From an uncultured Acidobacteriota bacterium (GTDB lineage: Bacteria; Acidobacteriota; Thermoanaerobaculia; Multivoradales; UBA5704): a stretch of 64,000 bases of DNA. The stretch covers positions 704,481-768,480 of the forward strand of contig CAVYRF010000001.1 of NCBI GenBank assembly GCA_963770895.1, written 5' to 3'. How positions within the stretch are numbered: the stretch's first letter is position 1; each line of letters starts with the position of its first letter. This document shows positions 11,410-53,653 of this stretch, piece after piece. Made by a program: the position numbers and the translations under genes. The notes below the pieces were generated by a model. That model saw only the letters and a list, made by a program, of their open reading frames with translations, was not told where the DNA came from and made no database searches.

Positions 11410-11442
11410 GTGCCGCCGCCGCCGGTGTCTCGCCGCCGCCGT

Positions 11443-19084: not shown

Positions 19085-19101
19085 AGCCCGAATCGGTATC
19101 G

Positions 19102-38468: not shown

Positions 38469-39227
38469 ATGAAGACCGTGTCCCGCCTGCTGTCCGTCGC
38501 CGCCTACGGCCTGGTGCGACCGTGGATGCGGCGCCGGGTGGGCCGGACGGTGCTCGAATCGATCGATGGCGTGCCGCTGGTGGTGTTGCCCCAGGTGCTC
38601 AACCCGCGCGTCTTCCGCACCGGCGCCTGGCTGGCGCAGGCGGTGCCGCCGGCTGCCGCGCCGGCGGCCACCCGCCGCGCTCTCGACATGGGCACCGGCT
38701 CGGGCATCGGCGCCATCTTCGCCGCCCGCCGCGGCTATCGCGTGACGGCGCTCGACATCAATCCCCACGCCGTCCGGTGCGCTCGCGTGAACGCCCTGCT
38801 CAACGGCCTGGACCAGCAGATCGACGTGCGGCAGAGCGACCTGTTCGACGCCGTCGCCGGCGAACGCTTCGACCTGGTGCTGTTCAATCCGCCATTTTTC
38901 CCCGGCACGCCGCGCGATCCGCTGGACGCGGCCTGGCGCAGCCACGACGTCATCGAGCGCTTCACCGCCGGCCTGCCCGCGGCGCTGGCGCCGGGAGGGT
39001 CGGCCCTGCTGCTGCTGTCCAGCGCCGGCGGCTCCGACAGCAAGCTCCTGGCCCACGTCCCCGCCCAGCTGCGCGTCGCGCCGGTCTTCCGCCGCGGCTT
39101 TGCCGGCGAAACGATCACGCTCTTTGCCGCCACCTGGGTCCCCGCCGCCAGCGCCAGCGCGGCCCAGGCCGGCGCCGCCCGGCCGCTGGCGGCGCCCGCG
39201 CTGTCCTCCGTGGAGGTGATGCGATGA
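38469..39227 (+). CDS. class I SAM-dependent methyltransferase (HemK/N5-glutamine-MTase-like, NPPF motif)
   Basis: ALDMGTGSGIGAIFAARRGYRVTALDINPHAV...LVLFNPPF. Start at ATG 38469. Confidence 0.75.
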   Translation: MKTVSRLLSVAAYGLVRPWMRRRVGRTVLESIDGVPLVVLPQVLNPRVFRTGAWLAQAVPPAAAPAATRRALDMGTGSGIGAIFAARRGYRVTALDINPHAVRCARVNALLNGLDQQIDVRQSDLFDAVAGERFDLVLFNPPFFPGTPRDPLDAAWRSHDVIERFTAGLPAALAPGGSALLLLSSAGGSDSKLLAHVPAQLRVAPVFRRGFAGETITLFAATWVPAASASAAQAGAARPLAAPALSSVEVMR

Positions 39228-40816
39228 GCGCCAGCGTTGCCTCGGCAGGCGTGTCGGGCGCGGCGGCGGGCCGCCAGCGGGTGCTGCTGGTCAATCCGCG
39301 CATGTGCTCGCGCCGCTCGATGCGCCTGCCGCTGTCGCTGCTGTCGCTGGGTTCGGTCCTGGAAGGGCGCTACGACTACCAGCTGATCGACGGCAATGTC
39401 GATCCCGACGCCATCGGCACCGCGCTCGCCGCGCTGGCGCAAGGCGACCATGCAATGGTGGGGGTGAGCGTCATGCCGGGGCCGCAGGTGGGGCCGGCGA
39501 TCGCGCTGTCCACCGCGGTGCGCGCGCACTTCCCGCAGGTGCCGATCGCCTGGGGCGGGTACTTCCCGACCCTCTACCCGGATTCGGCGATCAACGCTTC
39601 GTACGTCGACTACGTGGTGCGCGGCCAGGGCGAAGAAACCCTGCTGGAGCTGCTGGCGCGGCTGCCCGACGCCGGGCCGCCGGCGCCGCCATCCGACTCG
39701 GCTGCCGACGCCGGCGCCCTGGCCGGCCTGGCGGGCCTGACCTTCAAGCACGACGCCGAAGTGCGGCACAACGCCGACCGCCACTTCAAGCCGCCGGACG
39801 ACCTGCCGCCGCTGCCCTACCAGCGCCTGGCCGACGTCACGCCCTACCTGCGCCCGACGTTCATGGGGGCGCGCACCGGCGTGCACCAGGCGGCCCTGGG
39901 CTGCCGCTATCGCTGCAGCTTCTGCGGCGTCGTCACGATGTTCAACGGCGTCACCCGCCTGCAGGGAGCGTCGCGCCTGGCGCAGGCGGTGACGACGCTG
40001 CGCGACAAGTACGGCGCCGACTCGATGCAGTACTACGACAACAATTTCTTCGACCGCGAAGAGAGCAGCGTGCCGCTGCTCGAAGAGCTCGCCCGCCTGC
40101 AATCGCCCTGGTGGTGCTATGCGCGCGCCGACACCATGGCGGGCTTTTCGACCCGCACCTGGGAGCTCATCCGCCAGAGCCGCATGCGCATGGCCTACAT
40201 CGGCGCCGAAGCGGGGAGCGACGCGGCGCTGCGCCAGATGAAAAAGGGGTCGCGCGTCGAAGACACGTTGGAGGTCGCGCGCCTGTGCCGCGCCTACGGC
40301 GTGGTGCCCGAGCTGTCGTTCGTGCTCGGCGGCCCCGACGATCCCGAAGGCGAGGTCGAGCACACCCTGAGCTTCATCAAGCGCATCAAGCAGATCCACC
40401 CCACCTGCGAAGTCGTGCTGTACTTCTACAGCCCGACGCCGCGGCGGGAAGCCGCGTCAGAGGCGACGCGGGCCAGCGGCCTGCGCCTGCCGGTGATGGA
40501 CAACTACGGCCCGGACGGCCCGCCGCTGCCGACGACGCCGCTCGAATGGACCGAGCGCAAGTGGATCGACTACGTGTGCCACCAGGACGCGCCCTGGCTG
40601 TCGCCGCGCCTGCGCCGCCGCGTGCGCGACTTCGCGACCGTGCTCGGCTGCCGTTTCCCGACCGTGCAGGACGCCAAGACCCCGGACTGGGGCAAGGCGA
40701 TCCTGCGCAACCTGTCCCGCTGGCGCTACAGCAGCGGCCTCTACGGCAGCCCCTGGGAGCTGGAGCTGGCCCGGCGCCTGGTGCCCTTGCGCCAGCCGCA
40801 GCGCGAAAGCCTGTGA
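39224..40816 (+). CDS. B12-binding-domain radical SAM protein (class B rSAM)
   Basis: 530 aa. N-terminal cobalamin-binding-like domain and CRYRCSFCG radical SAM cluster. ATGA overlap with the upstream methyltransferase. Confidence 0.85.
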   Translation: MSASVASAGVSGAAAGRQRVLLVNPRMCSRRSMRLPLSLLSLGSVLEGRYDYQLIDGNVDPDAIGTALAALAQGDHAMVGVSVMPGPQVGPAIALSTAVRAHFPQVPIAWGGYFPTLYPDSAINASYVDYVVRGQGEETLLELLARLPDAGPPAPPSDSAADAGALAGLAGLTFKHDAEVRHNADRHFKPPDDLPPLPYQRLADVTPYLRPTFMGARTGVHQAALGCRYRCSFCGVVTMFNGVTRLQGASRLAQAVTTLRDKYGADSMQYYDNNFFDREESSVPLLEELARLQSPWWCYARADTMAGFSTRTWELIRQSRMRMAYIGAEAGSDAALRQMKKGSRVEDTLEVARLCRAYGVVPELSFVLGGPDDPEGEVEHTLSFIKRIKQIHPTCEVVLYFYSPTPRREAASEATRASGLRLPVMDNYGPDGPPLPTTPLEWTERKWIDYVCHQDAPWLSPRLRRRVRDFATVLGCRFPTVQDAKTPDWGKAILRNLSRWRYSSGLYGSPWELELARRLVPLRQPQRESL

Positions 40817-42537
40817 CGGACACCCAGCCCGACAGGCTGCCGGCAGCGAAGCTGCCGCTGCGGCACGGCGCCTATGCGTGGCAGACGCGCTGGCGCCCCG
40901 GCGAGCTCGCCACCGCCCGCTTCATGCCCATGGGCCTCCACCTGGAGCTGGTCACCAACAGCCCGCCCCTCCTGGCTGCCGCCCGCCAGTGCTTCGGCGG
41001 CTACGGCGAGCCGGCGCCAGACCGCCCCGTCGATCTCACCCTGAGGCTCTACCAGCACTCCGTCGACGCGCCGGCGCCAGGCGCTGGCGTCGCTACGACC
41101 GCCGCTACGTCCGGCCACCTCGCCACGGCAACGGCCGCCGCCGCCAACCCGGCCGGCACCGCCGGCCTCCCCGACCTGGCCAACACCGCCAACCCCGCCG
41201 ACCAGGGGTTCAACGGGGGCAGCGTCGCGGCGATCCACCCAGTGAGGGCGGCTGCCCTCCCGGAGGCCGGGCCGCCCGGCGCCGCCACGTCCGGCAGCTG
41301 TGTCGCCGCAACCGCCGCCGGCGCCACCCCCGGCTCCGTCGCTGCAACCGCCATCCACGCCTCGACGACCGGCAACGCCGCTGCTGCAACCGCCATCGGC
41401 GCCGCCATGTCTGGCAGCTCTAGCGCAGCAACCGCTGCCGACGCTACGACCGGCAACTCCGCTGCTGCAGCCGCCATCGGCGCCGCCATGTCTGGCAGCT
41501 CTAGCGCAGCAACCGCTGCCGACGCTACGACCGGCAACTCCGCTGCTGCAGCCGCCATCGGCGCCGCCATGTCTGGCAGCTCCGTCGCCGCAACCGCTGC
41601 CGACGCTACGACCGGCAGCTCCAGTGCCGCAACCGCTGCCGACGCTACGACCGGCAGCTCTAGTGCAGCAACCGCTGGCGACGCCACGACCGGCAGCTCC
41701 GTCGCCGCCACCTCACCTGTCGCCGCGATGGCTGGTGCCGCCGCCGGCGGCCGGGACGTGCATTTCTTTGACGGCGGCGCCGCCGGCGCGCCGCTGTCCG
41801 CGCCGATCCTGCGCTGCGAGGGTCCGTATCTCTACCAGGCCAGCGGGTCTGACACGGTGATGGTGGCCGACCGCGGCGCCGGGGTCACCTTCGGCTACCT
41901 GGCCGCAGCGACCGTGGCCGATGCAGCGCACCTCACCTGGCACTACCTGTGGCCGGCGGTTTCCTATCACCTGGAATGCCGCGGTTTTGCCGGAGTGCAC
42001 GCCGCCGCCATCGCGCGGCGAGGCCGCGGGCTGCTGCTGCGCGGCCGCAGCGGCCAGGGCAAGACGACGCTCACCTATGCGGCCACCCGTCGCGGCTGGC
42101 AGGCCGTCAGCGAAGACATCGTATGGGTGGACGCCCGCGGCGCCACCTGGTGGGGCTCGCCCTGGACCTTCCACCTGCTGCCGGACGCCCGCCAGCTCTT
42201 TTCCGAGTTGAGCGGGCGCGGCGTCGCCCTGCAGCCCAACGGCGAAGTCAAAGTGGTGGTCGACATGGAATCCCTCTGGCCCGGCAGCACCCTGCCCAAG
42301 GCCGCGGCCGGCCCGGTGGTCATCCTGGAGCGCCGCCATGGCGGCACCAGCAGCCTGGTCACCCTCGACCCGGCCACAGCGCACCACGAATGGCTGGACG
42401 GCTGCGCCCGCCACGAGCGCCAGGCCCCCGGCTACGACCAGACGGTGGCGGACCTGCTCAGCAGAGGTTGCCACCGCCTCCACCTGGGAGACGACCTGGA
42501 CGGCGCCCTGGACCTGTTGGAGCCGCTCCTGCCATGA
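40813..42537 (+). CDS. HPr kinase/phosphorylase-related Ser kinase-like protein with N-terminal Ala/Thr/Ser-rich repeat region
   Basis: The C-terminal domain carries an HprK-like P-loop and downstream block (LLLRGRSGQGKTTLTYAATRRGWQAVSEDIVWVD; compare HprK [27 protein letters not shown]). GTG 40813 overlaps the upstream stop (GTGA). An alternative ATG is at 40924. Confidence 0.7.
   Translation: MTDTQPDRLPAAKLPLRHGAYAWQTRWRPGELATARFMPMGLHLELVTNSPPLLAAARQCFGGYGEPAPDRPVDLTLRLYQHSVDAPAPGAGVATTAATSGHLATATAAAANPAGTAGLPDLANTANPADQGFNGGSVAAIHPVRAAALPEAGPPGAATSGSCVAATAAGATPGSVAATAIHASTTGNAAAATAIGAAMSGSSSAATAADATTGNSAAAAAIGAAMSGSSSAATAADATTGNSAAAAAIGAAMSGSSVAATAADATTGSSSAATAADATTGSSSAATAGDATTGSSVAATSPVAAMAGAAAGGRDVHFFDGGAAGAPLSAPILRCEGPYLYQASGSDTVMVADRGAGVTFGYLAAATVADAAHLTWHYLWPAVSYHLECRGFAGVHAAAIARRGRGLLLRGRSGQGKTTLTYAATRRGWQAVSEDIVWVDARGATWWGSPWTFHLLPDARQLFSELSGRGVALQPNGEVKVVVDMESLWPGSTLPKAAAGPVVILERRHGGTSSLVTLDPATAHHEWLDGCARHERQAPGYDQTVADLLSRGCHRLHLGDDLDGALDLLEPLLP
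41390..41700 (+). repeat. in-frame tandem repeat: 81-bp unit x2 perfect (AIGAAMSGSSSAATAADATTGNSAAAA), then degenerate 33-bp units
   Basis: 41390-41470 is identical to 41471-41551. Shorter SSxAATAADATTG units follow. Confidence 0.8.
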
Positions 42538-43721
42538 CGCTCGAAGCAATCGCGGACCAGGAGGCTACACCGCCTGCCGCCGCCGCCGCTGCCGGCGGGT
42601 CGCCTTCCGCCGCCGTCGCCGGTGGCGAGCCGCCACCCGGCGCTGCAGGAGACGCCGGGCGTCTGGCGTGGATGTGCGAGCGGCTGGCCGTTTGGGTGGT
42701 CGCCCCGCCGCCGCAGCCGCCGCCGGCGTGGCCGGCCGCGGCGTGGGAGGACTTTCGTGCCGCCACGCAGGTCCACGGCGTCGGCCCGCTGCTGGGGCGG
42801 CGCCTGGGCGACCGCCAGCCATGGTCGCAGGCGGCAGCCTGGCTTGGCGCCGAGCATGCCGCCAACCGCTTGCGCGTCGAGCGTCTGCACCAGGACTTGC
42901 GCGCGATCCTGGCGCGCTTTGCCGCCGCGGACGTGCCGCTCATGCCGCTCAAGGGCGCGGTGCTGGGGCCGCTCTATTATTCCGACCCCGCGGAGCGGCC
43001 AATGGCCGACCTGGACCTGCTGGTGCGCGCCGAAACGCTGGCGCAGAGCGCCCAGCTGCTGGTCGACATCGGCTATGAGGTGGTCTTTGAAGGCCGCAAA
43101 CACGTCAAGCTGGCGCCGCGCGGCGGCCGTCGCCGCCCGGTCAGCGACGCCGGCGGCGCCAGCGACGGCGACGTTGGCGCCGACGCCGGTGGTAGCCCCG
43201 GCCCCGGCCCCGGCGACCACGAGGCGGCCGGCGAGCACCCCGACAACCCGCGCTGGGTCGAGCTGCATCCGGCCTGCGGCGAATGGCTGGGGGACGAGCG
43301 CATCGATCTGACCGGCCCGATCTGGGCCGGCGCCCGCCGGCAGCCGCTGCTGGGCGAGCCGGCCTGGCTGCCCGACCCGGCGACCCATTGGCTCTACCTG
43401 TTGGTGCATGCCACCCACCACATCCTGATCAATCGCTTCCGTCTCATCCAGCTGCTCGACCTGCTGCTGCTTTGCCCGACGGACCTGTTGGGCGCCGCCC
43501 TCCAGGTCGAGCCGCCCGCCGCCGCGGCCGCCATGGCGCGCGCCCTGTACCCGCCTCTCGCGCTCCTCCAACGGTACTTCCCGGCGGGCGCCACCGCCGC
43601 CGCGACGGCCCTGCGCCAGGACTTGCGCGCGCGGCTGGCGCCCGGCTACGCGGCCTGGGCCGACGGCCTGGACCTGTTCCAGGCTTGCTATCTCGACGCC
43701 GCGCCGTGGAGGGCGCCATGA
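42534..43721 (+). CDS. nucleotidyltransferase-family protein (PF14907/NTP_transf_5-like)
   Basis: 395 aa. Contains LMPLKGAVLGPLYY...MADLDLLV (G-x-DxD nucleotidyltransferase core) and a C-terminal HATHH helix. ATGA overlap with the upstream gene. Confidence 0.7.
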   Translation: MTLEAIADQEATPPAAAAAAGGSPSAAVAGGEPPPGAAGDAGRLAWMCERLAVWVVAPPPQPPPAWPAAAWEDFRAATQVHGVGPLLGRRLGDRQPWSQAAAWLGAEHAANRLRVERLHQDLRAILARFAAADVPLMPLKGAVLGPLYYSDPAERPMADLDLLVRAETLAQSAQLLVDIGYEVVFEGRKHVKLAPRGGRRRPVSDAGGASDGDVGADAGGSPGPGPGDHEAAGEHPDNPRWVELHPACGEWLGDERIDLTGPIWAGARRQPLLGEPAWLPDPATHWLYLLVHATHHILINRFRLIQLLDLLLLCPTDLLGAALQVEPPAAAAAMARALYPPLALLQRYFPAGATAAATALRQDLRARLAPGYAAWADGLDLFQACYLDAAPWRAP

Positions 43722-45148
43722 GCGAGCCTGGCGCCGTCAGCGAGCCGGGCACCGTCGGCGAGCAGGGTGCCGTCAGCGAGCCGGGCGCCGCCAGCGAGCC
43801 GGGCACCGTCAGCGAGCAGGGCGCCGTCAGCGGGCCGGGCGCGGTCAGAGCGCGGGGCGCCGTCAGTGGGCCGCGCGGCATGAGCGGTCAAGGCGCCATG
43901 AGCGAGCGCCCGGTGGTGGTGGTGGTGGGCGACGCCGTGGCGCCCACCGGCTTCGCGCGCGTGCTGCACAGCATTCTGGGGCGGCTCGCCGACCGTTACG
44001 AGTTCCATCACCTGGGGGTCAACTACGGCGGCCAGCCGCACGAGCACGCCTGGCAGATCTATCCCGCGGACGGCGGCGGCGACCTGCACGGCGTGCGGCG
44101 CGTGCGCGACCTGGTGGAAAAGGTGCGGCCCCGCCTCGTCTTCCTGCTCAACGACCCCTGGCTGATGGGCGGCTACCTCGACGCCTTGGGCGATTGCCGC
44201 GCCGGCATCAAGGTGATCGCCTACGCGCCGGTCGACGCCGGCCCGCTGGAGGCGGAGCTGGTGGCGCCGCTCACCGGCCTGGATCACCTGGTGCTCTATA
44301 CCCGCTACGGCCTGCAGGAAATGGAGGCGTCGGCGGCGCAGCTGCGCCGCCTGCGCCCCGACGCGGCCGCCTTCCCGGCGCTGTCGGTCGTGCCGCACGG
44401 CGTCGATTCGGACCTCTTCCGCCCGCTCGCCGGCCCGCCCACGGCGGCGGCGCCCGGCGACTTTGCCGCCTCCCGCGCCGCGGCGCGCCGCCAGCTGTTC
44501 GTCGACCCGGCGCTGCACGACGCCTGGATCGTCTTGAACGCCAACCGCAACCAGCCGCGCAAGCGCATCGACGCGACGATCAAGGGCTTCGCGCTCTTTG
44601 CGCGCGACAAGCCGCCCAACGTCCGCCTCTACCTGCACATGGGGATGGTCGATTGCGGCTGGAACGTGGTCGCCCTGGCGCGCCGTCACGGCATCGAAGA
44701 CCGGCTCATCCTGACCGCCGAGGAGCACTTCCTGCCGGCGGTCGCCGACGATCTGCTCAACCAGATCTACAACGCCTGCGACGTGGGCATCAACACCTCC
44801 CTGGGCGAGGGCTGGGGCCTGGTCAACCTGGAGCACGCCGCCACCGGCGCCGCCCAGGTGGTGCCCCGCCACAGCGCCTGCGCCGAGATCTGGGACGGCG
44901 CCGCCGAGCTCGTCGAGCCCGTCGCCAGCCTCACCATGGAAGGCCTGCTGACCGAAGGCCGCCTGGTCGGCCCCGAAGGGGTCGCCCGCGCCCTCGATCG
45001 CCTGTACACCGATCCCTCCCACCTGCGCCGGCTGTCCGCCGCCGCCTACCAGGTCGCCACCCGCCCCGAATACCGCTGGGACGACGTCGCCCGCCGCTGG
45101 GACGATCTCTTCCAGCAGATGCTGGCGGCCACCCCCACTGCCGTCTGA
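43718..45148 (+). CDS. GT4 (group 1) glycosyltransferase with N-terminal hexapeptide-repeat tail
   Basis: NTSLGEGWGLVNLEHAATGAAQVV (EX7E) in the C-terminal Rossmann half. ATGA overlap at 43718. If the repeat tail is untranslated, an alternative start would be near 43895 (MSERPVVVVVGD). Confidence 0.8.
   Translation: MSEPGAVSEPGTVGEQGAVSEPGAASEPGTVSEQGAVSGPGAVRARGAVSGPRGMSGQGAMSERPVVVVVGDAVAPTGFARVLHSILGRLADRYEFHHLGVNYGGQPHEHAWQIYPADGGGDLHGVRRVRDLVEKVRPRLVFLLNDPWLMGGYLDALGDCRAGIKVIAYAPVDAGPLEAELVAPLTGLDHLVLYTRYGLQEMEASAAQLRRLRPDAAAFPALSVVPHGVDSDLFRPLAGPPTAAAPGDFAASRAAARRQLFVDPALHDAWIVLNANRNQPRKRIDATIKGFALFARDKPPNVRLYLHMGMVDCGWNVVALARRHGIEDRLILTAEEHFLPAVADDLLNQIYNACDVGINTSLGEGWGLVNLEHAATGAAQVVPRHSACAEIWDGAAELVEPVASLTMEGLLTEGRLVGPEGVARALDRLYTDPSHLRRLSAAAYQVATRPEYRWDDVARRWDDLFQQMLAATPTAV
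43721..43900 (+). repeat. 18-bp tandem repeat x~10 (AGCGAGCCGGGCGCCGTC; peptide SEPGAV)
   Basis: Ten consecutive 18-mers with 1 to 4 substitutions each, at the 5' end of the GT4 gene. Confidence 0.7.
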
Positions 45149-45283
45149 GAAAATCGCCGTTGATCTGACCCGCTACCACCGCCCCAGACCACTAGACGTG
45201 CGATCGGGGGGCGTGGTATCTTCTAAAACAAGCAGACCAATGTCGTCCTTCGATCCTGTTTGGATGGGGGAGAGGAGGTAAGC

Positions 45284-45589
45284 GTGGCGATTACGGTTGT
45301 CAATCAGTCGGTCGGTGCTCTGTCCTATACCGTGTTCGGCGGCTCGACTTCGGGTTCGGGCACGGGCGGGTCGGGCAGCAAGGGTTCGGGAACCACGGGC
45401 TCCGGTACCCACGGCTCGGGCGGCGGCTCGGGTGTCGTGGCTTCGGGCGTCGTCGGTCCGGGTGGCACCGCGTCCGGGATCCAGGTGGGTGCAGGCTCCT
45501 ATACCGTGGTCTTCGGGTGGAAAACCTTCCCCAGCTACACGGTTTCGGCCTCGGGTGTGGTCAAGGTGACGACGACCGTCCAGCCGTAG
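45284..45589 (+). CDS. small Gly/Ser/Thr-rich repeat protein (101 aa), candidate modification substrate
   Basis: GGGGAGAGGAGG RBS 5 nt before GTG 45284, downstream of an AT-richer spacer. Central region GSTSGSGTGGSGSKGSGTTGSGTHGSGGGSG is flanked by related beta-strand-like ends (SYTVFGG / SYTVVFGW). The ORF track lists 45260..45589. Confidence 0.55.
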   Translation: MAITVVNQSVGALSYTVFGGSTSGSGTGGSGSKGSGTTGSGTHGSGGGSGVVASGVVGPGGTASGIQVGAGSYTVVFGWKTFPSYTVSASGVVKVTTTVQP

Positions 45590-45621
45590 CGCGTTCCGAA
45601 CGGTTGCCAGCGCGGCGCGGC

Positions 45622-46656: not shown

Positions 46657-46679
46657 CCACCTGCAACACGCTCCGCTCA

Positions 46680-46867
46680 CCGCTCGCCTTCACGGCTCGC
46701 GGTTCGCCACCTGCCTCTTGCGGTTCGCCGCTCGCCCTTCACGGCCCGCGGTTCGCCACCCGCCTCTTGCGGTTCGCCGCTCGCCTTCACGGCTCGCGGT
46801 TCGCCACCCGCCGGTTGCGGTTCGCCGTTGCCGCGGCTCGCGGTTCGCCACCCGCCGGCGGCCTTCG
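46680..46867. repeat. intergenic ~48-bp tandem repeat x3.9 (CCGCTCGCCTTCACGGCTCGCGGTTCGCCACC(T/C)GCC(TC/GG)TTGCGGTTCG)
   Basis: Copies at 46680-46727, 46728-46776, 46777-46824, and a partial copy to 46867. It lies between the convergent sulfotransferase and B12-rSAM gene ends. Confidence 0.7.
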
Positions 46868-46895
46868 ACTGGCGGCCTGAGAGGGCGCCGGCGGA

Positions 46896-48320
46896 TCAGG
46901 ACAGGCGTTGTGCCGGGCGCAGGAAGTTGGCGACCTGCTTTTCGATCGGGGCGGCGTAAAAGTCGCGGTCGCAGCGCCAGCGGGCCAGCGCGCGCAGCGG
47001 CCGGCTCCAGGGTCGGCCGGAATCCCAGGCCAGCTGCTGGAAGAATTTGAAGCGCTCGATCAGCCGGTACTTTTCGGGCGACACCCACGGACCGATCGAG
47101 CCCACGAAGTCAAATTCGCTCCATTCGTCCAGCGTGCAGGGGAGGGTGAAGCCGGCGGCCACCGCGTTCTGGGTGATCGAGGTGCCGGGATAGGGTTTGA
47201 AATAGAAAATCGGCGTCTGGAAGTCGGGGCTCATGGCGCGCAGCCGCTTGACCACCTGCAGGGTGGCGCGCACGTTGTCCTCGGTCTCTTCCGGGAAGCC
47301 GACGATGAAGGGGAAGTTGACCGCCACGCCGAACTTGCGACAGCGCTCGGCGACAAAAAAGACCTGCTCCAGCTTGATGTCTTTTTTGATGCGATCCATC
47401 ATTTCCTGCGAGCCCGATTCGACGCCGACCAGCAGGCGGCGCAGCCCCGAGCGCTTGCACTTGGCGAAGACCTCTTCGCTCATGCGCTGGCCCTGGTCGG
47501 CGCGCATGGTGGCGGCCCAGGTGATGGGGAGCTTGCGGCGGATGAGCTCTTCGGCGACCGCTTCGACGCGCTGGGCGTAGGTGAAAAAGGTTTCGTCCTG
47601 GAAGTTCACGTCGTCGTAGCGCGAGCGGTGCCACAGCGCTTCGAGCTCTTCGCCCATGCGCTCGGGCGACAGGCCGGTCCACTTGCGCTGGTAGACGAAC
47701 GGATCGGCGCAAAAGGCGCAGCGGAAAGCGCACCCCTGCGACGAGATGTAATCCAGCTGGCGCTTGCCCTTGAGGCGATAGTACGGTTCGATGTCGATCA
47801 GGCCGTAGTTGTGGACCGCCAGGGTGTTGACGTCGGCCAGCGGGCGGGCCGTGTTCACCTGCGCGGCGCCGTCCTCGCGGTAGGTGCAACCCTGGCAGCC
47901 GGTCAGTGGCCGCCCTTCAGCCAGGCGCTCGACGATCTCGGCAAAGGTGATTTCCCCCTGGCCTTGCACGGTCACGTCGACGCTCGGTTCCGCCAGGCAT
48001 TCGCGGCCGAACATCGACGGGTGCCAGCCGCCCCAGACGACCGGCAGGTCGGCGCGGCTGGCCTTGGCGGCGCGGCTGGCCGCAACCGCGTCGGCGATCG
48101 GCGCCCCGGTGAGCACCGTGACGCCCAGGCAGAGCGCGCCTTCCAGCTCCGCCACCAGGGCGCGGTGTGCCGCTTCGGGGTTTTTGGCCAACCGGGCGTC
48201 CACGACCACCACCTGGTAGCGCTCGGGATCGAGGTGCGATCCGATGGTGAGCAGCGCCAGCGGCATGGTGTAAAAGACCGCGGTCGGGTTGTACAGCACG
48301 ATTTTGTGGCGGCGACTCAT
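46896..48320 (-). CDS. B12-binding-domain radical SAM protein
   Basis: 474 aa. Contains MSRRHKIVLYNP...VVVVDARL (B12-binding-like) and CAFRCAFCADP (CxxxCxxC). ATGA overlap with the upstream gene. Confidence 0.85.
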   Translation of the reverse strand: MSRRHKIVLYNPTAVFYTMPLALLTIGSHLDPERYQVVVVDARLAKNPEAAHRALVAELEGALCLGVTVLTGAPIADAVAASRAAKASRADLPVVWGGWHPSMFGRECLAEPSVDVTVQGQGEITFAEIVERLAEGRPLTGCQGCTYREDGAAQVNTARPLADVNTLAVHNYGLIDIEPYYRLKGKRQLDYISSQGCAFRCAFCADPFVYQRKWTGLSPERMGEELEALWHRSRYDDVNFQDETFFTYAQRVEAVAEELIRRKLPITWAATMRADQGQRMSEEVFAKCKRSGLRRLLVGVESGSQEMMDRIKKDIKLEQVFFVAERCRKFGVAVNFPFIVGFPEETEDNVRATLQVVKRLRAMSPDFQTPIFYFKPYPGTSITQNAVAAGFTLPCTLDEWSEFDFVGSIGPWVSPEKYRLIERFKFFQQLAWDSGRPWSRPLRALARWRCDRDFYAAPIEKQVANFLRPAQRLS

Positions 48321-49399
48321 AAGGGCTCCGGGGTCAATGCCAGCGTGCAGACGCATTTGCGACAGATCGCATCGCGGTCGGTGTCCAGGCCGCGGCGCCA
48401 GGCGAGCGCCTGCGGCGAATTGACGATCGCGTCCAGGCTTGCCGCCTGCCGCAGGTTGCCGAGCGGCGGCTGGAAGAAGCACGGCCGCACCGTGCCGTCG
48501 GCTTCGATCACCGTCGACACCCACGGCGCGTTGCAGCGATGCGGCGGAAAATCGCCGTGGCCGCACAGTGCGGCGTAGTAGTCGTAGAGCCGCGCCCGCA
48601 GCTTCGCCGCGCCCTCGACGATGAAGCCGGATGCGAAGTCGGCCGCGTGCTCGCGTTCCAGGGCGTCCAGCTCGCCGGCCAGCCGCGGCAGCTCCTCTTC
48701 GAGCAGCGCCACCTGGCCGGCGCGCGCCGCTTCCCAGGGCTGCGGCCGGTTGAAGGCGTCGCTGCTGACGTCGGCGGCCAGCAGGCTCAACCAGTTCAGG
48801 CCGATCGCGCGGGCCGCCGTGACGGTGCCGCGCAGGTGGGCGAAGTTGGCCCGCTGGACGGTGCAGCGCCCGCCGATCGTCAGCTGAGGCGCGGCTTGGC
48901 GCACCGCCGCCACCCCGTCGGCCAGCTTGGCGAAAGCGCGCGGCAGGTTGCGGATGTGATCGTGCACGGGCTGCGGCCCGTCCAGGCTGACGATCACTTC
49001 GGAGCAGTAGGCGGCGACCTGGGTCGCGTCGCGCCGCAGCAGCAGACCGGTGGACAGCAGGGTGATCGCGATGCCGGCGCGCCGCAGGTGCTCGCACATC
49101 TCCCACAGGTTGCGGTGCAGCAGCGCTTCGCCGCCCGACAGCGCGACCTGGCGCACCCCCATGCGCTGCCATTCGGCAACCCACTGTGCCACCTCGGCCG
49201 CGCCCAGCTCCTGCTTGCCCGGATCGCGCCAGATGTCGCACATCAGGCAGCGGCAGTTGCAGCGGCTGTGCGGGAACAGGATGACGATCGGCAGCCGCTC
49301 GACCGGTTGGGGCCGCGGCAACCCGTCGGCCGCCCCGCCGCTCCACGCGTTGGCCGGCAGCTCGGCGGCCGGCAGCACCGGAAGCACGGTCGAGCTCAC
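48317..49399 (-). CDS. radical SAM protein with SPASM/twitch-like C-terminal Cys cluster
   Basis: 360 aa. HSRCNCRCLMCDIW (CxxxCxxC). The C-terminus has C-x13-G-x4-C (CNAPWVSTVIEADGTVRPC) and CRKCVC. GTG start overlaps the upstream stop (GTGA). Confidence 0.8.
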   Translation of the reverse strand: MSSTVLPVLPAAELPANAWSGGAADGLPRPQPVERLPIVILFPHSRCNCRCLMCDIWRDPGKQELGAAEVAQWVAEWQRMGVRQVALSGGEALLHRNLWEMCEHLRRAGIAITLLSTGLLLRRDATQVAAYCSEVIVSLDGPQPVHDHIRNLPRAFAKLADGVAAVRQAAPQLTIGGRCTVQRANFAHLRGTVTAARAIGLNWLSLLAADVSSDAFNRPQPWEAARAGQVALLEEELPRLAGELDALEREHAADFASGFIVEGAAKLRARLYDYYAALCGHGDFPPHRCNAPWVSTVIEADGTVRPCFFQPPLGNLRQAASLDAIVNSPQALAWRRGLDTDRDAICRKCVCTLALTPEPL

Positions 49400-50385
49400 C
49401 GCCGCTCCAACTCCAGCAGGTAATGGTCGGCCAGCCAGGGCAGCGGCGGCCAGGTTTCGGCACGCCGCTCCCAGCGCCCGAGCAGACGCAGCAGGCGCGG
49501 GTGGCGCGCCGCCCAGCCTTCGGCGTAGGTGGGCGGCAGCAGCGCGCCGACCGCCGCGCGCCGGCGCAGGCGGAAGGCGGGACCGAACAGGCGCCGCAGC
49601 GCGCCGACCGACGGATAGCGGATGGTCAGGCCGCGCCAGCGCGTGCCGCCCGGCCGCAGCCGGCGAAAGGCGCGCCCCGGCTGCGCGTGGCCCAGGTACC
49701 AGGCCCACTCCCACGGCACCAGCGGGCCCATCACGCAAACGACCGCCATGGCGCCCGGCCGCAGGTTTGCCGCCAGCCAGCCCGCCAGCTGCCGCAGGTC
49801 GGCTGGCGCCACGCAGTTGAGGCCGCCGAAGTTGGACAGCACCCCGTCGAACGGCCGCGGCGCCGCCGGTGTGGCGCCGGCAGCAGGTGCGGCAGCGGGT
49901 ACAGGCGCGGTGGCGAGTACAGACGCGACCGCGGGCATAGGCGCAGCGGCGGGTACAGACGCGGGCGCGGGTGCCGGGTCCGCCGGCGGTGATTGCTGGG
50001 GGTGCCAGGGTTGCCGGGGCTGCCGGGTCAGCTGTTCGATGGTCTGGTGGCGCAGATCGACCCGATCGCCCAGGCCGGCGCTCGCGATCTTGTCGCCGGC
50101 GCGTTCCAGCATGCCGGCGGCGGCGTCGATGGCGGTGACGCGCACGCCGCGGCGAGCCAGGTACAGGGCGTCTTCGCCGGTGCCGCAGTTGAGCTCCAGC
50201 ACGTGGCTGCCGGGGGCGAAGCAGGCGTCCAGCCGCCGCCAGACCGCCTGGCGCATCTGCGTGCCGATGGCGCTGCCGGTGAAGCTGGCGTCGTAGGACG
50301 CGGCCATGCGGTCGAACGCGGTGGCACCCGTGGCGTCGCCATCGCGGCGCGCCGGCAGCACGGGGAGGACGGCCGGTTCGGTCAT
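49396..50385 (-). CDS. class I SAM-dependent methyltransferase with Pro/Ala-rich insertion
   Basis: 329 aa. Motif I VLELNCGTGEDALYLA. ATG 50385 lies 2 nt after the upstream stop. Confidence 0.8.
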   Translation of the reverse strand: MTEPAVLPVLPARRDGDATGATAFDRMAASYDASFTGSAIGTQMRQAVWRRLDACFAPGSHVLELNCGTGEDALYLARRGVRVTAIDAAAGMLERAGDKIASAGLGDRVDLRHQTIEQLTRQPRQPWHPQQSPPADPAPAPASVPAAAPMPAVASVLATAPVPAAAPAAGATPAAPRPFDGVLSNFGGLNCVAPADLRQLAGWLAANLRPGAMAVVCVMGPLVPWEWAWYLGHAQPGRAFRRLRPGGTRWRGLTIRYPSVGALRRLFGPAFRLRRRAAVGALLPPTYAEGWAARHPRLLRLLGRWERRAETWPPLPWLADHYLLELERR

Positions 50386-50387
50386 CG

Positions 50388-51785
50388 TCACGGCGCCGCC
50401 GGCGACTCCTCGGGCCAGGAGAGCAGCGCCTGGTGCGCCGCTTCCGCCATCTGCAGCTTTTCGGCGGCGTCCGCCGGGTTGTCGGACTGCAGGCGGGCGG
50501 CGGCGACGCTGTTGCGCAGCCACCGGTCGGCCTGTTCGTAGTAGGCGCGCGAGCGCTGGCCGCGCAGCCGGTAGTCGCGGTCGGTGGCGGTATCCCAGCT
50601 CTTGTCGAGCTGCACGCGGTCGGCCACCTGGCGGAAGTAGGCGGTGTTCTTGATCGGGTAGGCGACGGTGGTGAAGAAGATGTTGGGGTTGGCCTTTTTG
50701 ACGTGCTCGACGGTGGCTTCGATGTCGGCCAGCGTTTCGCCCTGGTAGCCCCACATCAGGAACATGCCGACTTCGATGCCGTGGCGCTGGGCGGCGTGGG
50801 TCGCCCACTGCACCTGCTCGGCGGTGACGCCCCGATCCATGGCGTCCAGGATGCGCTGGCTGCCGCTTTCAGAGCCGATCCAGATGCGGTAGCAGCCCAT
50901 TTCGGCGAGCGTCGCGATCACTTCGTCCTTGAGCAGCCGATCGGCGCGCGAAATGGTTTCGAAAGGGCGCACCAAGCCGCGCTTCTTGAGCAGGCCGGCG
51001 AACTCGAAGAGCCAGCGGTGGTGGATGGTGAACACGTCGTCGGCGTACCACAGCTGTTCGGGCTGGTAGGCTTCGACGATGTGCGCCACTTCGTCGGCGC
51101 AGTCGAGCGCGCTGCGCCGGCGATGGGTGTAGCCGAACACGGCGTGCGAGCACCATTTGCAGCGATACGGGCAGCCGCGCGCGGTGATCAGGTTGACGCT
51201 GCCCATGCCGTGGTGGGTGTGCCAAACGTCGACGTAGCGGGCGATGTCGATCTGCTCGCGATCGGGCCAGGGGAGGCTGTCCAGGTCGGCGATCTGTTCG
51301 CGGTCCGGATTGGTGACGACCTCCCCTTCTTCGTCGCGGAAGACCGTGCCGTGCAGGCCGTGCAGACGGTGCGGACCGCGCAGGGCGAGCGCCGGCAGCA
51401 GTTCCGCGAGCGTCGCTTCGCCTTCGCCCACCACCACGACGTCGGCGCCGTGGGCCAGGTATTCGGCCGGGTAGTTGGCCGATTCGGGGCCGCCGAGCAC
51501 CACCGTCCAGCCGTGCTGCCGCGCGGCGGCGATGATGGCGAGGATCGACGCGCGGGTCATCAGGTTGGTGTAGATCCCCACCACGCCGCCGGGAGTGGCG
51601 GCAAGGCGCTGGCGCAGCGCGGCGCGCTCGGCGAACGTGGAATCGAAGATCTCGACGCTGAAACCGGCGCGACGCAGATACGAAGAGATGTAGAGCAGCC
51701 CCAGCGTCGGGTAGGGCTTCATGATCTGCAGCTCTTTGGGATCTTCGTGCAGGAAGTAGCCGTGGGTCAGCAGGATGTCGGCCAT
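50388..51785 (-). CDS. B12-binding-domain radical SAM protein
   Basis: 465 aa. Contains ADILLTHGYFLHEDPKE...VVLGGP and CPYRCKWC. Confidence 0.85.
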   Translation of the reverse strand: MADILLTHGYFLHEDPKELQIMKPYPTLGLLYISSYLRRAGFSVEIFDSTFAERAALRQRLAATPGGVVGIYTNLMTRASILAIIAAARQHGWTVVLGGPESANYPAEYLAHGADVVVVGEGEATLAELLPALALRGPHRLHGLHGTVFRDEEGEVVTNPDREQIADLDSLPWPDREQIDIARYVDVWHTHHGMGSVNLITARGCPYRCKWCSHAVFGYTHRRRSALDCADEVAHIVEAYQPEQLWYADDVFTIHHRWLFEFAGLLKKRGLVRPFETISRADRLLKDEVIATLAEMGCYRIWIGSESGSQRILDAMDRGVTAEQVQWATHAAQRHGIEVGMFLMWGYQGETLADIEATVEHVKKANPNIFFTTVAYPIKNTAYFRQVADRVQLDKSWDTATDRDYRLRGQRSRAYYEQADRWLRNSVAAARLQSDNPADAAEKLQMAEAAHQALLSWPEESPAAP

Positions 51786-51786
51786 A

Positions 51787-53367
51787 TCAGTTCCAGCTCT
51801 TGCTCAGGTCGGGCATCGCCGGCGTCGTGTAATCTTTTCGAATCGCCGTCGGCCGTTCGCTGCGGCTGCACGCTTCAAGCCGCCCCAGCTCCAGCCAGGC
51901 GCTGCACAGCTGATCCAGCTCCTGCCGGATCTCCGCATCGGACGCGCCGTCTACAGCCGCAGGCGCGCCGGCGGCGGCGTTTGCAGGCAGGGCGGGCGGG
52001 GCAGGGGCAGCGCCCCGGGACCTGTCGCGCAGGCGCTGGCGGACCAGCAGATCGCGGTGCAGCAGGCGATGCAGGTGGCGATAGAAAGGCGTCTGATAGG
52101 TGCCCTGAAACATCATCGCCAGGTCGTTGCTGTCCTGCCAATGATCCTGCCCGTTGAGCTGGGCCTTGACCATCTCATGGAAGCGCGTGCCGGGCAGCGG
52201 GTAGCTGACGCTGATGCCGATCTCGTCGGGCAGCGTGTCGCGCACCAGCTGCACCGTCTGCTCGATGTCTTCAAAGGTTTCACCGGCGTAGCCGAACTGC
52301 AGGAAATAGCAGGCGCGGATGCCGGCGTCGCGCAGACGCTCGCGCACCACCGGGATCTGGCGCGCGTCGGTGCCCTTGTCCATGGCGTCCAGGATCTTCT
52401 GGCTGCCGCTTTCGACCCCCAGCCAGACCTCGTGGCAGCCGGCCTTGGCCAGGCCGGCCACGGCTTTTTCCGTCATGAGGTCGATGCGCGACTGGATCTT
52501 GAACGGGATCGAGCCGTCGAGCGCCGTCACCCGGTCGGCAAATTCGGCGACCCAGCGCGGCTGCAGGCCGAAGATGTCGTCGGCAAACCAGATCAGGTCG
52601 GGCTTCAGGCTGCGCTTCAGCAGCGCCATCTCTTCGGCCACGCTGGCCGGCGAGCGCATGGCGTAGCGCTGCCCCCAGATCGGTTTTGCGCACCAGTTGC
52701 AGTGGAAGGGGCAGCCGCGGGTGCTCACCATGTTGAGGCTGAAGTAGCCGTGGGCGCCGCGCCAGGCATTGCGGTAGCGTTCCACGTCGAGCAGGTCCCA
52801 GGCCGGCAGCGGAAAGACGTCGGGGTGGCGCTCGACGGCGCGCGAGCAGGTGCGCTGCACCCCGTCCGGCGCCGCCGGATCGGGGATCGCGAGGCCGGCC
52901 ACTTCGTTCACGCACCGGCCGTTGGCGCGGCCGGCAAGGATGTCGACCAGCTCGCCCAGGGTGTGATCGGCTTCGCCGGCCAGCACGTATTGCACGCCCT
53001 CGCGGAAGTACACCTCGGGATGATCGGACGCGTCGGAGCCGGCGGCGATCACCGTGGCGCCGGCGGCGCGCGCGTGCCGGCTCATGTTGCAGCCGGCGCG
53101 GCGGCTGTGCGCCAGACACATCTTATTGAGAAAGTTGAATTGATCTTCGTAAAGGGCGACGATAGCCGGTTGCGTTTCGGCCAGGAGCCGTTCGAACTCC
53201 TCTTCGCCATCGGCCAGCATGGCGTCGAACAGCGCCACCGAATAGCCGCGCCGCCGCAGTTCGCTGGCCGCGTACAGCGTGCCGAGCGGCGCGTAGGGCG
53301 ACATCTTTTCGATCTGCTTCGGATCATTCTTCAGAAAGAACGAATGGGCGAGGAGGATGTCGGTCAT
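51787..53367 (-). CDS. B12-binding-domain radical SAM protein (paralog of the preceding gene)
   Basis: 526 aa. Contains TDILLAHSFFLKNDPKQ and CPFHCNWC. First gene of the minus-strand operon. Confidence 0.85.
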   Translation of the reverse strand: MTDILLAHSFFLKNDPKQIEKMSPYAPLGTLYAASELRRRGYSVALFDAMLADGEEEFERLLAETQPAIVALYEDQFNFLNKMCLAHSRRAGCNMSRHARAAGATVIAAGSDASDHPEVYFREGVQYVLAGEADHTLGELVDILAGRANGRCVNEVAGLAIPDPAAPDGVQRTCSRAVERHPDVFPLPAWDLLDVERYRNAWRGAHGYFSLNMVSTRGCPFHCNWCAKPIWGQRYAMRSPASVAEEMALLKRSLKPDLIWFADDIFGLQPRWVAEFADRVTALDGSIPFKIQSRIDLMTEKAVAGLAKAGCHEVWLGVESGSQKILDAMDKGTDARQIPVVRERLRDAGIRACYFLQFGYAGETFEDIEQTVQLVRDTLPDEIGISVSYPLPGTRFHEMVKAQLNGQDHWQDSNDLAMMFQGTYQTPFYRHLHRLLHRDLLVRQRLRDRSRGAAPAPPALPANAAAGAPAAVDGASDAEIRQELDQLCSAWLELGRLEACSRSERPTAIRKDYTTPAMPDLSKSWN

Positions 53368-53474: not shown

Positions 53475-53503
53475 AGAATACTTCTATCCTGCACGGTCGT
53501 CAA
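53475..53503 (-). promoter_or_regulatory. sigma70-like promoter of the five-gene rSAM operon (minus-strand TTGACG-N17-TATTCT)
   Basis: -35 at 53503..53498 and -10 at 53480..53475, about 110 nt upstream of ATG 53367. Confidence 0.5.
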
Positions 53504-53535
53504 CGCCAAAGTCAATGTCGGCACCGCGCGCGCCA

Positions 53536-53601
53536 GATCGGGGCCGCGCGCCGCCAGACGGCCAGCCCGATCCGGGCCGCGCGCCGCCAGGCGGCCAGCC
53601 C
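53536..53601. repeat. two tandem 33-bp direct repeats (GATC(G/C)GGGCCGCGCGCCGCCAG(A/G)CGGCCAGCCC) upstream of the rSAM-operon -35
   Basis: 53536-53568 and 53569-53601 differ at 2 positions. Candidate activator binding sites. Confidence 0.5.
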
Positions 53602-53653
53602 GCATGCCGCCTGGCGAGAGGTGCCGGAGAGACAGCGGGGAACCGGCCTTCCT

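Follow-up and report, generated by a model that had tools for sequence, protein, structure and literature searches.

What does a dense cluster of radical-S-adenosylmethionine (SAM), methyltransferase, kinase-like, nucleotidyltransferase-fold and glycosyltransferase genes modify in an uncultured acidobacterium? The cluster lies at positions 38469 to 53367 of a 64,000-nucleotide (nt) stretch of contig CAVYRF010000001.1. This whole stretch is called the window here; coordinates are window positions unless a locus name precedes them, and names such as L002 denote the loci with which the window was compared. An earlier reading of the sequence by a model (the original prediction) proposed that the enzymes of two convergent operons all act on one small Gly/Ser-rich protein, g6. 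Our comparison points to a different answer, which we hold with middling confidence: the locus may be a composite, two-module island for peptide and protein modification. Module 1 (plus strand, 39224 to 46656, and a methyltransferase) would decorate g6, while module 2 (minus strand, 46896 to 53367, g1 and a Cys-containing peptide) would mature that peptide.

Since the G+C content of the window is 72%, genes were placed with a frame plot of G+C at third codon positions and by start-codon analysis. Twelve genes were found where the original prediction had put them, seven on the plus strand (g1 to g7) converging with five on the minus strand (g8 to g12). Every junction had been described as translationally coupled, with overlaps or gaps of at most 3 nt. 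This is correct for g1 to g5, where 4-nt ATGA/GTGA overlaps occur at g1/g2, g2/g3, g3/g4 and g4/g5, and for the minus strand, with three 4-nt overlaps (g8 to g11) and a 1-nt gap at g11/g12. It does not apply to g5-g6, which are 135 nt apart, or to g6/g7, where the gap is 14 to 32 nt, depending on the g7 start. Pfam matches bore out the gene types named for the minus strand (three B12-binding radical-SAM enzymes, a SAM-dependent methyltransferase and a SPASM-like radical-SAM enzyme), as well as the HemK-like methyltransferase (g1), the PF14907-like nucleotidyltransferase (g4) and the GT4 glycosyltransferase (g5).

The radical-SAM genes had been overcounted: there are five instead of six, of which four instead of five are of the B12 type and one is of the SPASM type. 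All five (g2, g8, g9, g11 and g12) contain the CxxxCxxC motif, and g2, g8, g11 and g12 match PF02310 and PF04055 above the cut-offs, which is the architecture of class B (B12-binding) radical-SAM enzymes. None of the twelve proteins reached the cut-off of any NCBIfam model, and g2, g8, g11 and g12 reached no specific NCBIfam equivalog. An Rfam scan of the window gave no match to any RNA family, cobalamin riboswitch included.

A conserved cassette with a small protein

The g6 gene (45284 to 45589, plus strand) has a GTG start and encodes a protein of 101 amino acids (aa), 74% of which are Gly, Val, Ser or Thr; Asp, Glu, Arg and Cys do not occur. As predicted, a strong ribosome-binding site (GGAGAGGAGG) precedes the start codon. 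The protein has an N7-Q8-S9 motif, a disordered Gly/Ser loop at approximately residues 22 to 48 and a predicted seven-strand beta-sandwich; no signal peptide was recognized by eye. We read a promoter-like TAGACG-N18-(TG)TATCTT upstream of g6 (45193 to 45222, plus strand). This block is below the threshold of the consensus scan and is conserved in type-A relatives (defined below), being kept in L001, L002, L011 and L015 within an otherwise divergent spacer. The strong ribosome-binding site and the separate, conserved promoter-like block are what would be expected of a substrate gene with high expression.

There are 37 full-length homologues of g6, 82 to 101 aa long and 45 to 98% identical. The N-terminal segment (MAITIVNQSVG.I.YTIFGGS) and the C-terminal half are conserved in the family; the Gly/Ser stretch between them differs in length from member to member. 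When 1.84 billion cluster representatives were searched with a profile, only 19 proteins were returned, 11 of them small and the rest large adhesins with Ig-like repeats, and thus the family is rare. It is not represented by a Pfam or NCBIfam model (no NCBIfam match at E <= 0.1). In several lineages the loop has grown by in-frame repeats specific to each, namely SGAWPSGSGASYGG, GSGTG and PSGSGVI (L029:11342-11830, L022:3468-3866 and L020:10346-10762), giving proteins of up to 162 aa. Repeat expansion of the loop was also seen in L028, the small open reading frame (ORF) of which is decayed and contains PSGSGMM repeats.

About 100 related loci were compared, with the small protein, g7 and a glycosyltransferase alignment as seeds, and all window proteins were mapped onto all loci. 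A scan of metagenomes with that alignment gave at least 418 relatives, and 80 loci were retained from it. The order kinase-like gene, PF14907 gene, glycosyltransferase, small protein, g7-like gene, or the part of it retained by the contig, was found in 15 loci besides the window (L002, L003, L004, L006, L007, L008, L011, L013, L015, L017, L019 to L022 and L029) and in the decayed copy L028. A B12-binding radical-SAM gene stands ahead of this block wherever the contig extends that far, and the small ORF is present in every cassette with downstream sequence, whether the locus was seeded from the small protein or from the glycosyltransferase. The named relatives are Acidobacteriota or Thermoanaerobaculia metagenome-assembled genomes; a scan of species-representative genomes gave three loci, one of which (L009, Clostridia, 42% G+C) is probably spurious. 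The neighborhood comparison, which the original prediction had named as a check, spoke for its choice of g6: the small ORF comigrates with the B12-binding radical-SAM, kinase, PF14907 and glycosyltransferase genes. It belongs to a conserved family with a fixed place after these genes and is not incidental.

Two types of the cassette were distinguished. Type A comprises the window, L002, L011 and L015, probably L020 and L044 (the contigs of which end before the downstream region), and partly L029. It opens with the HemK-like methyltransferase g1 and is followed by the convergent radical-SAM operon where the downstream region is present. Type B (L003, L004, L006, L007, L008, L013, L017 and L021) usually opens with a UbiE-like methyltransferase and has no extra radical-SAM genes. 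Six loci had gene tables (L003, L004, L006, L013, L014 and L017), and in all of them g7 is followed by genes for a TonB-dependent receptor and a DedA/VTT protein, which are translationally coupled in L006, L013/L014 and L017. Apart from the window, only L002, L011 and L015 were found to have the minus operon, with part of it in L029. It is missing from all eight type-B loci, of which L008 is on a short contig, and is therefore accessory and not a part of the conserved core. This result speaks against the claim that it forms one system with the small ORF.

Outside the cassette, glycosyltransferase homologues with 44 to 57% identity sit among housekeeping genes (PNPase, CysRS, TsaD and LipA/LipB), and these stand-alone loci have no radical-SAM, kinase or nucleotidyltransferase neighbors. 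Among about 42 of these loci whose flanks were sufficient, at least 18 contain one or two adjacent small ORFs of 75 to 97 aa, beginning with MAITVVNxT, MKIINKTN or GKITxxNxS. By hhalign, one group of them matched the g6 family with 95% probability (E = 2e-8) and the other with 53% (E = 1.4e-4). A g7-like gene is also present in nine stand-alone loci, and a TonB-dependent receptor gene in L026. The small ORF beside a stand-alone glycosyltransferase gene suggests that the ancestral unit paired a glycosyltransferase with a small beta-sandwich protein, to which g7 may or may not have been joined. The stand-alone members have no Gly/Ser loop, and their Gly plus Ser fraction is 0.20 versus 0.42 in the cassette members (p = 3e-6). 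So the B12-binding radical-SAM enzyme, the kinase and the nucleotidyltransferase were apparently gained in the Acidobacteriota cassette together with the loop.

Within this small-protein superfamily, the glycosyltransferase is the sole invariant partner. An N-x-[S/T] motif near the N terminus is present in 74 of 74 distinct members, at the homologous position in 73 of them and elsewhere in the decayed L028 copy. Its middle residue varies (Q, G, K, N, S, F or H), and its Asn is Asn7 in the window. An [A/W]-S-G motif is likewise universal.

Of the enzymes encoded ahead of g6, the 530-aa B12-binding radical-SAM enzyme g2 (39224 to 40816, plus strand; PF02310 and PF04055, CRYRCSFC) belongs to the core and is 65 to 82% identical in every cassette locus whose contig reaches it. 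The g1 gene (38469 to 39227, plus strand) encodes a HemK/PrmC-like class-I SAM methyltransferase of 252 aa with an NPPF motif, which matches PF05175 with 59 bits and TIGR00537 with 86 bits (cut-off, 87). Its orthologues (53 to 74% identity) are in L002, L011, L015, L020, L029, L044 and L099, and among the cassettes g1 is restricted to type A.

The g3 gene (40813 to 42537, plus strand) encodes a ScmC/HprK-like P-loop protein of 574 aa with an N-domain (residues 1 to 90), a 230-aa Ala/Thr/Ser tandem-repeat linker and a kinase-like domain. The linker is coded by 81-bp units (41283 to 41712), is missing in relatives and had gone unmentioned. The predicted HprK likeness was seen as a weak match of the P-loop region. 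There, GDSGVGKSE...ADD of solved HprK has its counterpart in the Walker A sequence GRSGQGKTT and an invariant Glu-Asp (ED) pair (E ~0.3), and about 36 of 50 g3 homologues have precomputed matches to PF27840 (ScmC). All curated cut-offs were missed: g3 scored 18.5 to 20 bits with PF07475 (gathering cut-off, 33.3; its homologue P0125 scored 31.3) and 20.7 bits with TIGR04249 (ScmC; cut-off, 125). With TIGR04352 and TIGR04355, the scores were 29.2 and 30.8 bits against a cut-off of 200, and only the P-loop stretch was aligned (residues 389 to 441). Therefore, the suggested assignment to HprK-related kinase A (TIGR04352) had to be dropped. A g3 homologue with 95% identity, P0114, is 376 aa long, showing that the repeat number differs between close strains.

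In the related loci, g3 is always directly followed by g4 (42534 to 43721, plus strand), which encodes a nucleotidyltransferase-fold protein of 395 aa. It matches PF14907 (NTP_transf_5) with E = 8e-31 and 107.9 bits (cut-off, 31.2) over profile positions 2 to 248 of 249. The nearest outgroup of the kinase, P0160 (33 to 36% identical to g3), is encoded in L100 in the order PqqD, transglutaminase-core protein, kinase, PF14907, which is a lasso-type context. In the same locus (L100:535-5663), we noted an opposite-strand 61-aa ORF ending in ...GPISS, a possible precursor with a C-terminal Ser, and a 36-aa ORF just upstream of PqqD.

The GT4-type glycosyltransferase g5 (43718 to 45148, plus strand; 476 aa) matches PF13692 and PF00534 above the cut-offs. 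It starts with a (GAVSEP)n repeat derived from 18-bp repeats at 43711 to 43877, its conserved body begins at approximately 43898, and identity in the alignment is 62 to 73%. The last gene of the plus strand, g7 (45622 to 46656; alternative TTG start at 45604), encodes a protein of 344 aa with a predicted sulfotransferase/P-loop-kinase fold, a PRSLST loop and a low-complexity insert of about 70 aa. The prediction of a sulfotransferase found some support in this predicted fold and none in the sequence: neither g7 itself nor a 28-sequence profile gave a Pfam, NCBIfam or PDB sequence match. Its 5'-phosphosulfate-binding-type loop, PRSLS[ST], is degenerate, with Leu replacing the Gly of P-[KR]-S-G-[ST]-[ST]. 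Membership in PF00685/PF13469 was not supported, as there was no family match and the 3'-phosphoadenosine-5'-phosphosulfate-binding loop is not intact. We conclude that g7 is sulfotransferase-like only at the fold level, by virtue of the predicted fold and the degenerate loop. A metagenomic protein of 561 aa, P0081, has a genuine sulfotransferase domain (PF13469/PF00685) fused to a C-terminal g7-like domain, which suggests that g7-type proteins act with, or derive from, sulfotransferases.

In-frame tandem-repeat or low-complexity inserts were noted in four genes of the locus: g3 (41283 to 41712), g5 (43711 to 43877), g10 (49884 to 50028) and g7 (about 45930 to 46130). They consist of 81-bp and 18-bp units coding for linkers rich in Ala, Ser, Thr, Gly and Pro. 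Those of g3, g5 and g7 were checked and are shorter or missing in relatives.

The minus-strand operon and a cysteine peptide

The minus operon starts with g12 (51787 to 53367; 526 aa), followed by g11 (50388 to 51785; 465 aa), and ends with g8 (46896 to 48320; 474 aa); all three encode B12-binding radical-SAM enzymes (PF02310 and PF04055). Among the cassettes g8 is confined to type A, with 78 to 79% identity in L002, L011 and L015 and 65% in L029. Between them, g10 (49396 to 50391) encodes a class-I SAM methyltransferase of 331 aa (Methyltransf_25) with internal 18-bp repeats, and g9 (48317 to 49399) a radical-SAM/SPASM enzyme of 360 aa (PF04055, and PF13186 with 41.6 bits against a cut-off of 21.5). 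In NCBIfam, g9 came closest to PTO1314, NirJ and ScmE, with 57 to 69 bits against cut-offs of 300 to 500. No PqqD-like recognition element was found for this SPASM enzyme.

The promoter described for this operon, TTGACG-N17-TATTCT (53475 to 53503, minus strand), was recovered by the consensus scan as one of two promoter-like sites versus 0.5 expected, and the two 33-bp direct repeats upstream of it (53532 to 53602) were also located as stated. Each repeat contains the palindrome GCCGCCTGGCGGC or a near copy. The hexamers and their spacing are conserved in L011, yet the repeats are missing there. The repeats are specific to the window and may represent an operator specific to its genome.

A leader-profile scan detected a 42-aa leader-core peptide, MKKTLIKIRRETLIPLEDQSTWRIAVVGATG/KCPSINIGCNQ, encoded at 18956 to 19084 on the plus strand. 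It is among the genes called on the 2.24-Mb source contig, has AAGGAGG 7 nt upstream and is followed by a 14-bp hairpin at about 19101 to 19131 (-34 kcal/mol, z = -5). The original prediction missed it; it lies beyond the coordinates covered there. The corresponding peptide of L002 and L011 has 54 aa (MKKSVKKLVLHRESLRLL...AAAGG/NYTAPLSCETICGLICPQPPRTQDC) and adjoins g1, its stop codon overlapping the g1 start. That of L015 and L016 has 63 aa (MKRNKPRKIVLNRETLRPLE...AGASG/PSCIYSGCGHTCFLGCTLRGC...) and in L015 is encoded between the glycosyltransferase and the small protein. The window, L002, L011 and L015/L016 peptides share the leader K-x-[LI]-x-[LI]-x-RE[ST]L, and their Cys cores are variable.

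No such leader peptide was found in any type-B locus. When every intergenic region of the window was searched for small Cys-rich ORFs, no convincing candidate emerged, the locus itself included, and no remnant of the 54-aa peptide gene was detected upstream of g1. By its leader-core organization, the Cys peptide is more likely than g6 to be a substrate of the conventional radical-SAM/SPASM kind.

In L029, g8- and g9-like genes follow the cassette in a different genomic context. Another arrangement was seen on a 2.88-Mb contig (L099, 10001-16952 and 18359-20954). There, an HprK-like gene (44% identity to g3) stands ahead of a Gly-rich 100-aa ORF that differs from g6 and contains GGxF/W pentads as repeats; after these come three genes for unknown proteins, a g1-like methyltransferase gene and a g2-like B12-binding radical-SAM gene, with more methyltransferase genes and another B12-binding radical-SAM gene nearby. 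This locus has no glycosyltransferase, PF14907, g6 or g7 gene. Given the g8- and g9-like genes of L029 and the gene combination of L099, the two modules may be functionally linked.

The convergent spacer g7/g8 contains 48-bp tandem repeats (46680 to 46856, 3.8 copies). The unit occurs nowhere else in the window, with 4 copies versus 0.02 expected. In relatives, the spacer is occupied by variable genes, namely those for a 2-oxoglutarate oxygenase and a polysaccharide pyruvyl transferase in L002 and for a trypsin-like protease in L015.

What the enzymes may act on

From the gene content, operon structure, co-occurrence, family relations and fold predictions described above we infer every chemical step and every pairing of substrate and enzyme. 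Most likely, g6 is glycosylated, phosphorylated or phosphoglycosylated, and methylated, and the Cys peptide is cross-linked and methylated. In module 1, the GT4 enzyme g5 would glycosylate g6 in continuation of the ancestral partnership, the likely site being the N-x-S/T turn or the serine of [A/W]-S-G. The kinase g3 would phosphorylate Ser/Thr residues in the long disordered Gly/Ser loop, which is confined to cassette-type members, and g4 would add a sugar or nucleotide to the loop phosphate, as PsmN does on pseudomycoidin. The B12-binding radical-SAM enzyme g2 and a class-I methyltransferase could place methyl groups on g6 or its glycan, and g7 might sulfate the product or merely bind it. 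In module 2, the SPASM enzyme g9 would make a Cys-derived cross-link in the 42-aa peptide, which the three B12-binding radical-SAM enzymes g8, g11 and g12 and methyltransferases would methylate. By analogy, this module resembles a conventional radical-SAM/SPASM pathway for a ribosomally synthesized and posttranslationally modified peptide (RiPP) with several C-methylations.

Several findings weigh against the two-module island. The core cassette encodes no protease, exporter or RiPP recognition element. The predicted g6 is a folded domain and not a leader-core peptide, and its model has a mean pLDDT (predicted local confidence) of 61.5. The invariance of Asn in the N-x-S/T motif was partly imposed by the filter for stand-alone candidates, which demanded Asn and not Ser/Thr, and the motif could instead be a purely structural Asx-turn. 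No small ORF was detected in about 24 stand-alone glycosyltransferase loci, and g7-like genes were seen also far from any cassette. The substrates of lasso kinases end in Ser, which is true of neither g6 nor the Cys peptides. The Cys peptide of the window has only two Cys residues and is encoded 19 kb from g1, and L029 has no such peptide despite its g8- and g9-like genes. Finally, glycan genes stand beside the cassette in many loci (GT4, FkbM methyltransferase and DedA genes, and the exopolysaccharide-like block of the window).

The last finding leads to another possible, if somewhat unlikely, explanation, close to the glycan tailoring that the original prediction had given as its alternative: a cell-envelope glycan or glycolipid pathway, the enzymes of which build a methylated, phosphorylated or sulfated sugar polymer or lipid, with g6 as a mere accessory (primer, chaperone, lectin-like binder or regulator). 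It would agree with the glycosyltransferase being the only invariant partner of the small proteins, and with type-B operons that open with a second GT4 gene, a gene for an unknown protein and an FkbM methyltransferase gene and close with the coupled TonB-dependent receptor and DedA/VTT genes. In the window and L011, the exopolysaccharide-like block adjoining the minus operon encodes a BNR protein, a hexapeptide acetyltransferase, a polysaccharide deacetylase, a GT4 enzyme, a flippase and a GT2 enzyme; in L002, the pyruvyl transferase gene is located between the two operons. The best NCBIfam matches of the B12-binding radical-SAM enzymes include lipid and hopanoid enzymes, all far under the cut-offs. 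However, the usual sugar activators are nucleotidyltransferases of the RmlA type, and a role as accessory explains neither the hypervariable Gly/Ser loop, which arose with the kinase module, nor the presence of a promoter-like block of its own and a strong ribosome-binding site ahead of g6. Moreover, HprK/ScmC-like proteins and PF14907 enzymes are documented on peptides and not on sugars (PMC8498205), and the nearest outgroup context is of the lasso type.

That the enzymes of both operons all act on g6, as originally predicted, we consider doubtful. In its favor, the two operons adjoin each other in convergent orientation in the window, L002, L011 and L015, and g8- and g9-like genes follow the cassette in L029. 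In addition, no Cys peptide is encoded inside the window locus, and in composition g6 (rich in Val, Thr, Gly, Ser, Asn and Gln) is similar to the cores of proteusins, the targets of methylation by several B12-binding radical-SAM enzymes. Against this, all eight type-B loci keep g6 without the minus operon, which is accompanied by leader-core Cys peptides whose genes overlap the g1 start in L002 and L011. Furthermore, g6 offers no Cys for the typical SPASM thioether reaction, and variable genes separate the operons in L002 and L015.

A bolder proposal, which we rate as quite improbable, is a new family of small glycoproteins. A soluble GT4 enzyme would glycosylate the invariant N-x-S/T or [A/W]-S-G motif of its own signal-less beta-sandwich partner of 75 to 100 aa. 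Uncultured soil bacteria would commonly have this module of two or three genes (glycosyltransferase, small protein, sulfotransferase-fold protein), and its elaboration in Acidobacteriota would phosphoglycosylate and radical-methylate a hypervariable Gly/Ser display loop. The product might be exported via the TonB-dependent transporter and the DedA protein coupled to type-B cassettes.

Hardly credible is a chance neighborhood of unrelated genes with g6 as a non-functional frame, as could be suspected from the many spurious ORFs at 72% G+C and the missing Pfam/NCBIfam match of g6: it is effectively refuted by the conservation data, namely 37 full-length homologues (45 to 98% identity) with conserved ends and in-frame variation of loop length and a gene order fixed across many contigs from different samples, and is also opposed by the coupling of enzyme genes by 4-nt overlaps and the calling of g6 as a gene by independent pipelines.

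If the two-module island is real, the HprK-like kinase/PF14907 pair acts beyond lasso peptides, on a folded mini-protein, together with a B12-binding radical-SAM enzyme and a GT4 enzyme. There would also be a glycosyltransferase/small-protein pairing without a Pfam or NCBIfam model, considering that the glycosyltransferase has at least 418 metagenomic relatives and that, of about 42 stand-alone loci examined, 18 encode the small protein. The majority of class-B radical-SAM enzymes are still orphans, and the 101-aa substrate and the 42-aa peptide would be a cheap test system for assigning their chemistry. The locus also illustrates that gene neighborhood can mislead: its densest part, with four extra radical-SAM genes, is the least conserved, and in the genome of the window the likely substrate of that part is located 19 kb away.

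Genomic surroundings and known systems

Some genes that flank the cassette in other loci are displaced in the window. A UbiE-like methyltransferase gene at 16977 to 17810 (plus strand) is 50 to 57% identical to its counterparts in nine loci (L003, L004, L006, L007, L017, L018, L020, L021 and L029). Its orthologue stands directly before the B12-binding radical-SAM gene in type B, where it opens the cassette, and before the HemK-like methyltransferase gene in L020 and L029; in the window, some 20 kb separate it from that place. With 29 to 44% identity, g10 matches far less well and was rejected as the orthologue of the type-B opening methyltransferase. Genes for an unknown 393-aa protein and an FkbM-methyltransferase/GT4 fusion (10228 to 13359, minus strand) are 59 to 61% and about 51% identical to flank genes of L003, L007 and L017. 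As their orthologues flank type-B cassettes, they are probably displaced accessories.

The window segment 14163 to 17810 (SCO1, a PBP6-cytochrome c fusion and the UbiE-like methyltransferase), which neighbors the Cys peptide gene, is orthologous to genes that in L020 and L029 stand just before the cassette. About 20 kb of other DNA (17896 to 38283) splits the two halves of a cluster that is contiguous in other loci. Its genes encode a thioredoxin-like membrane protein, a PEP-mutase-family protein, an unknown 425-aa protein, a nonribosomal peptide synthetase of 4080 aa, Usp, Nramp, a glyoxalase and an MntR-like repressor; the synthetase has 3 adenylation, 4 condensation and 4 peptidyl carrier domains and a thioesterase. 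In L020 (2359-3840), a gene for a tyrosinase (a copper enzyme) with DUF7868 lies between the PBP6-cytochrome c gene and the cassette-opening methyltransferase gene, and SCO1 copper chaperones are encoded upstream in L020, L029 and the window (14163 to 14855).

Directly upstream of the minus-operon promoter, a gene at 53654 to 54916 encodes what is probably a BNR/beta-propeller protein with a signal-peptide-like N terminus and the Asp-box SSDLGKSW. The gene and the stop of the hexapeptide acetyltransferase gene overlap, and the conserved L011 counterpart has 64% identity. Farther away, genes for KaiC, KaiB and a hybrid PAS/GAF histidine kinase with a receiver domain (1268 to 5892) form a clock-like or stress-signaling module unrelated to the cassette, and are followed by a GT9 (heptosyltransferase-like) gene, an unknown gene and two tandem genes for PhyH-family dioxygenases (5910 to 10261).

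In the literature searched, we came across no paper on the cassette, on the small-protein family or on the SynChlorMet and GRRM models. Among the computationally defined systems, the GRRM pair (TIGR04260 and TIGR04261) similarly places a Gly-rich small protein near a radical-SAM/SPASM enzyme, and the original prediction had invoked it for this locus. This did not hold, since g6 gave no match to TIGR04260, the Gly-rich repeat protein, at E <= 0.1, and TIGR04261 was not among the best 25 of the 46 matches of g9, none of those listed being above its cut-off. SynChlorMet (ScmC and ScmE/ScmF), known as computational families only, links an HprK-like ScmC-type protein to radical-SAM/SPASM genes. It differs in that g3 and g9 score far below its models (20.7 bits versus 125 for ScmC and 57 versus 400 for ScmE) and in that no PqqD-like ScmD is present here.

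In lasso peptide tailoring, HPr-kinase homologues phosphorylate the precursors, a PF14907-type enzyme adds hexose to the phosphate, and some clusters contain a putative sulfotransferase (PMC8498205). The kinase-like and PF14907 genes of the cassette correspond to this pair. Their likeness to the paeninodin (PadeK) and pseudomycoidin (PsmK/PsmN) sets is an HPr-kinase-like gene followed by a PF14907 gene, with a sulfotransferase-fold gene, next to a gene for a small ribosomal product. In contrast to a short peptide ending in Ser, the g6-type candidate substrate is a predicted beta-sandwich of 82 to 162 aa; lasso precursors have roughly 40 to 60 aa. In addition, a B12-binding radical-SAM enzyme and a GT4 enzyme are integral to the present cassette. 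A lasso peptide cluster was rejected, since no cyclase, B1 (PqqD) or B2 (transglutaminase-core) protein was present among the window genes scanned.

In soluble protein glycosylation, GtfA/GtfB (GT4) modify serine-rich-repeat adhesins, and the cytoplasmic NGT/HMW1C enzymes (GT41) act on N-x-S/T. The present locus shares with these systems a cytoplasmic GT-B enzyme and a dedicated protein with a Ser-rich disordered stretch and an invariant N-x-S/T. NGT, however, belongs to GT41 and not to GT4, and the candidate acceptor here is tiny and signal-less instead of a large adhesin.

In proteusins such as polytheonamide, several B12-binding radical-SAM C-methyltransferases, a radical-SAM epimerase and an N-methyltransferase act on one precursor. 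Similarly, several B12-binding radical-SAM genes and class-I methyltransferase genes, one with an NPPF motif of the amide-N-methyltransferase type, accompany a gene whose ribosomal product abounds in Val, Thr, Gly, Asn and Gln. The differences are that the extra B12-binding radical-SAM enzymes are clade specific here, and that a kinase, a nucleotidyltransferase and a glycosyltransferase are present. A proteusin was rejected for g6, in which no NHLP or Nif11 leader was detected (no NCBIfam match). In summary, the enzyme families and the logic of a substrate with its tailoring enzymes are known from these systems; what would be new is their combination, the folded mini-protein as a substrate and the widespread pairing of a glycosyltransferase with a small protein.

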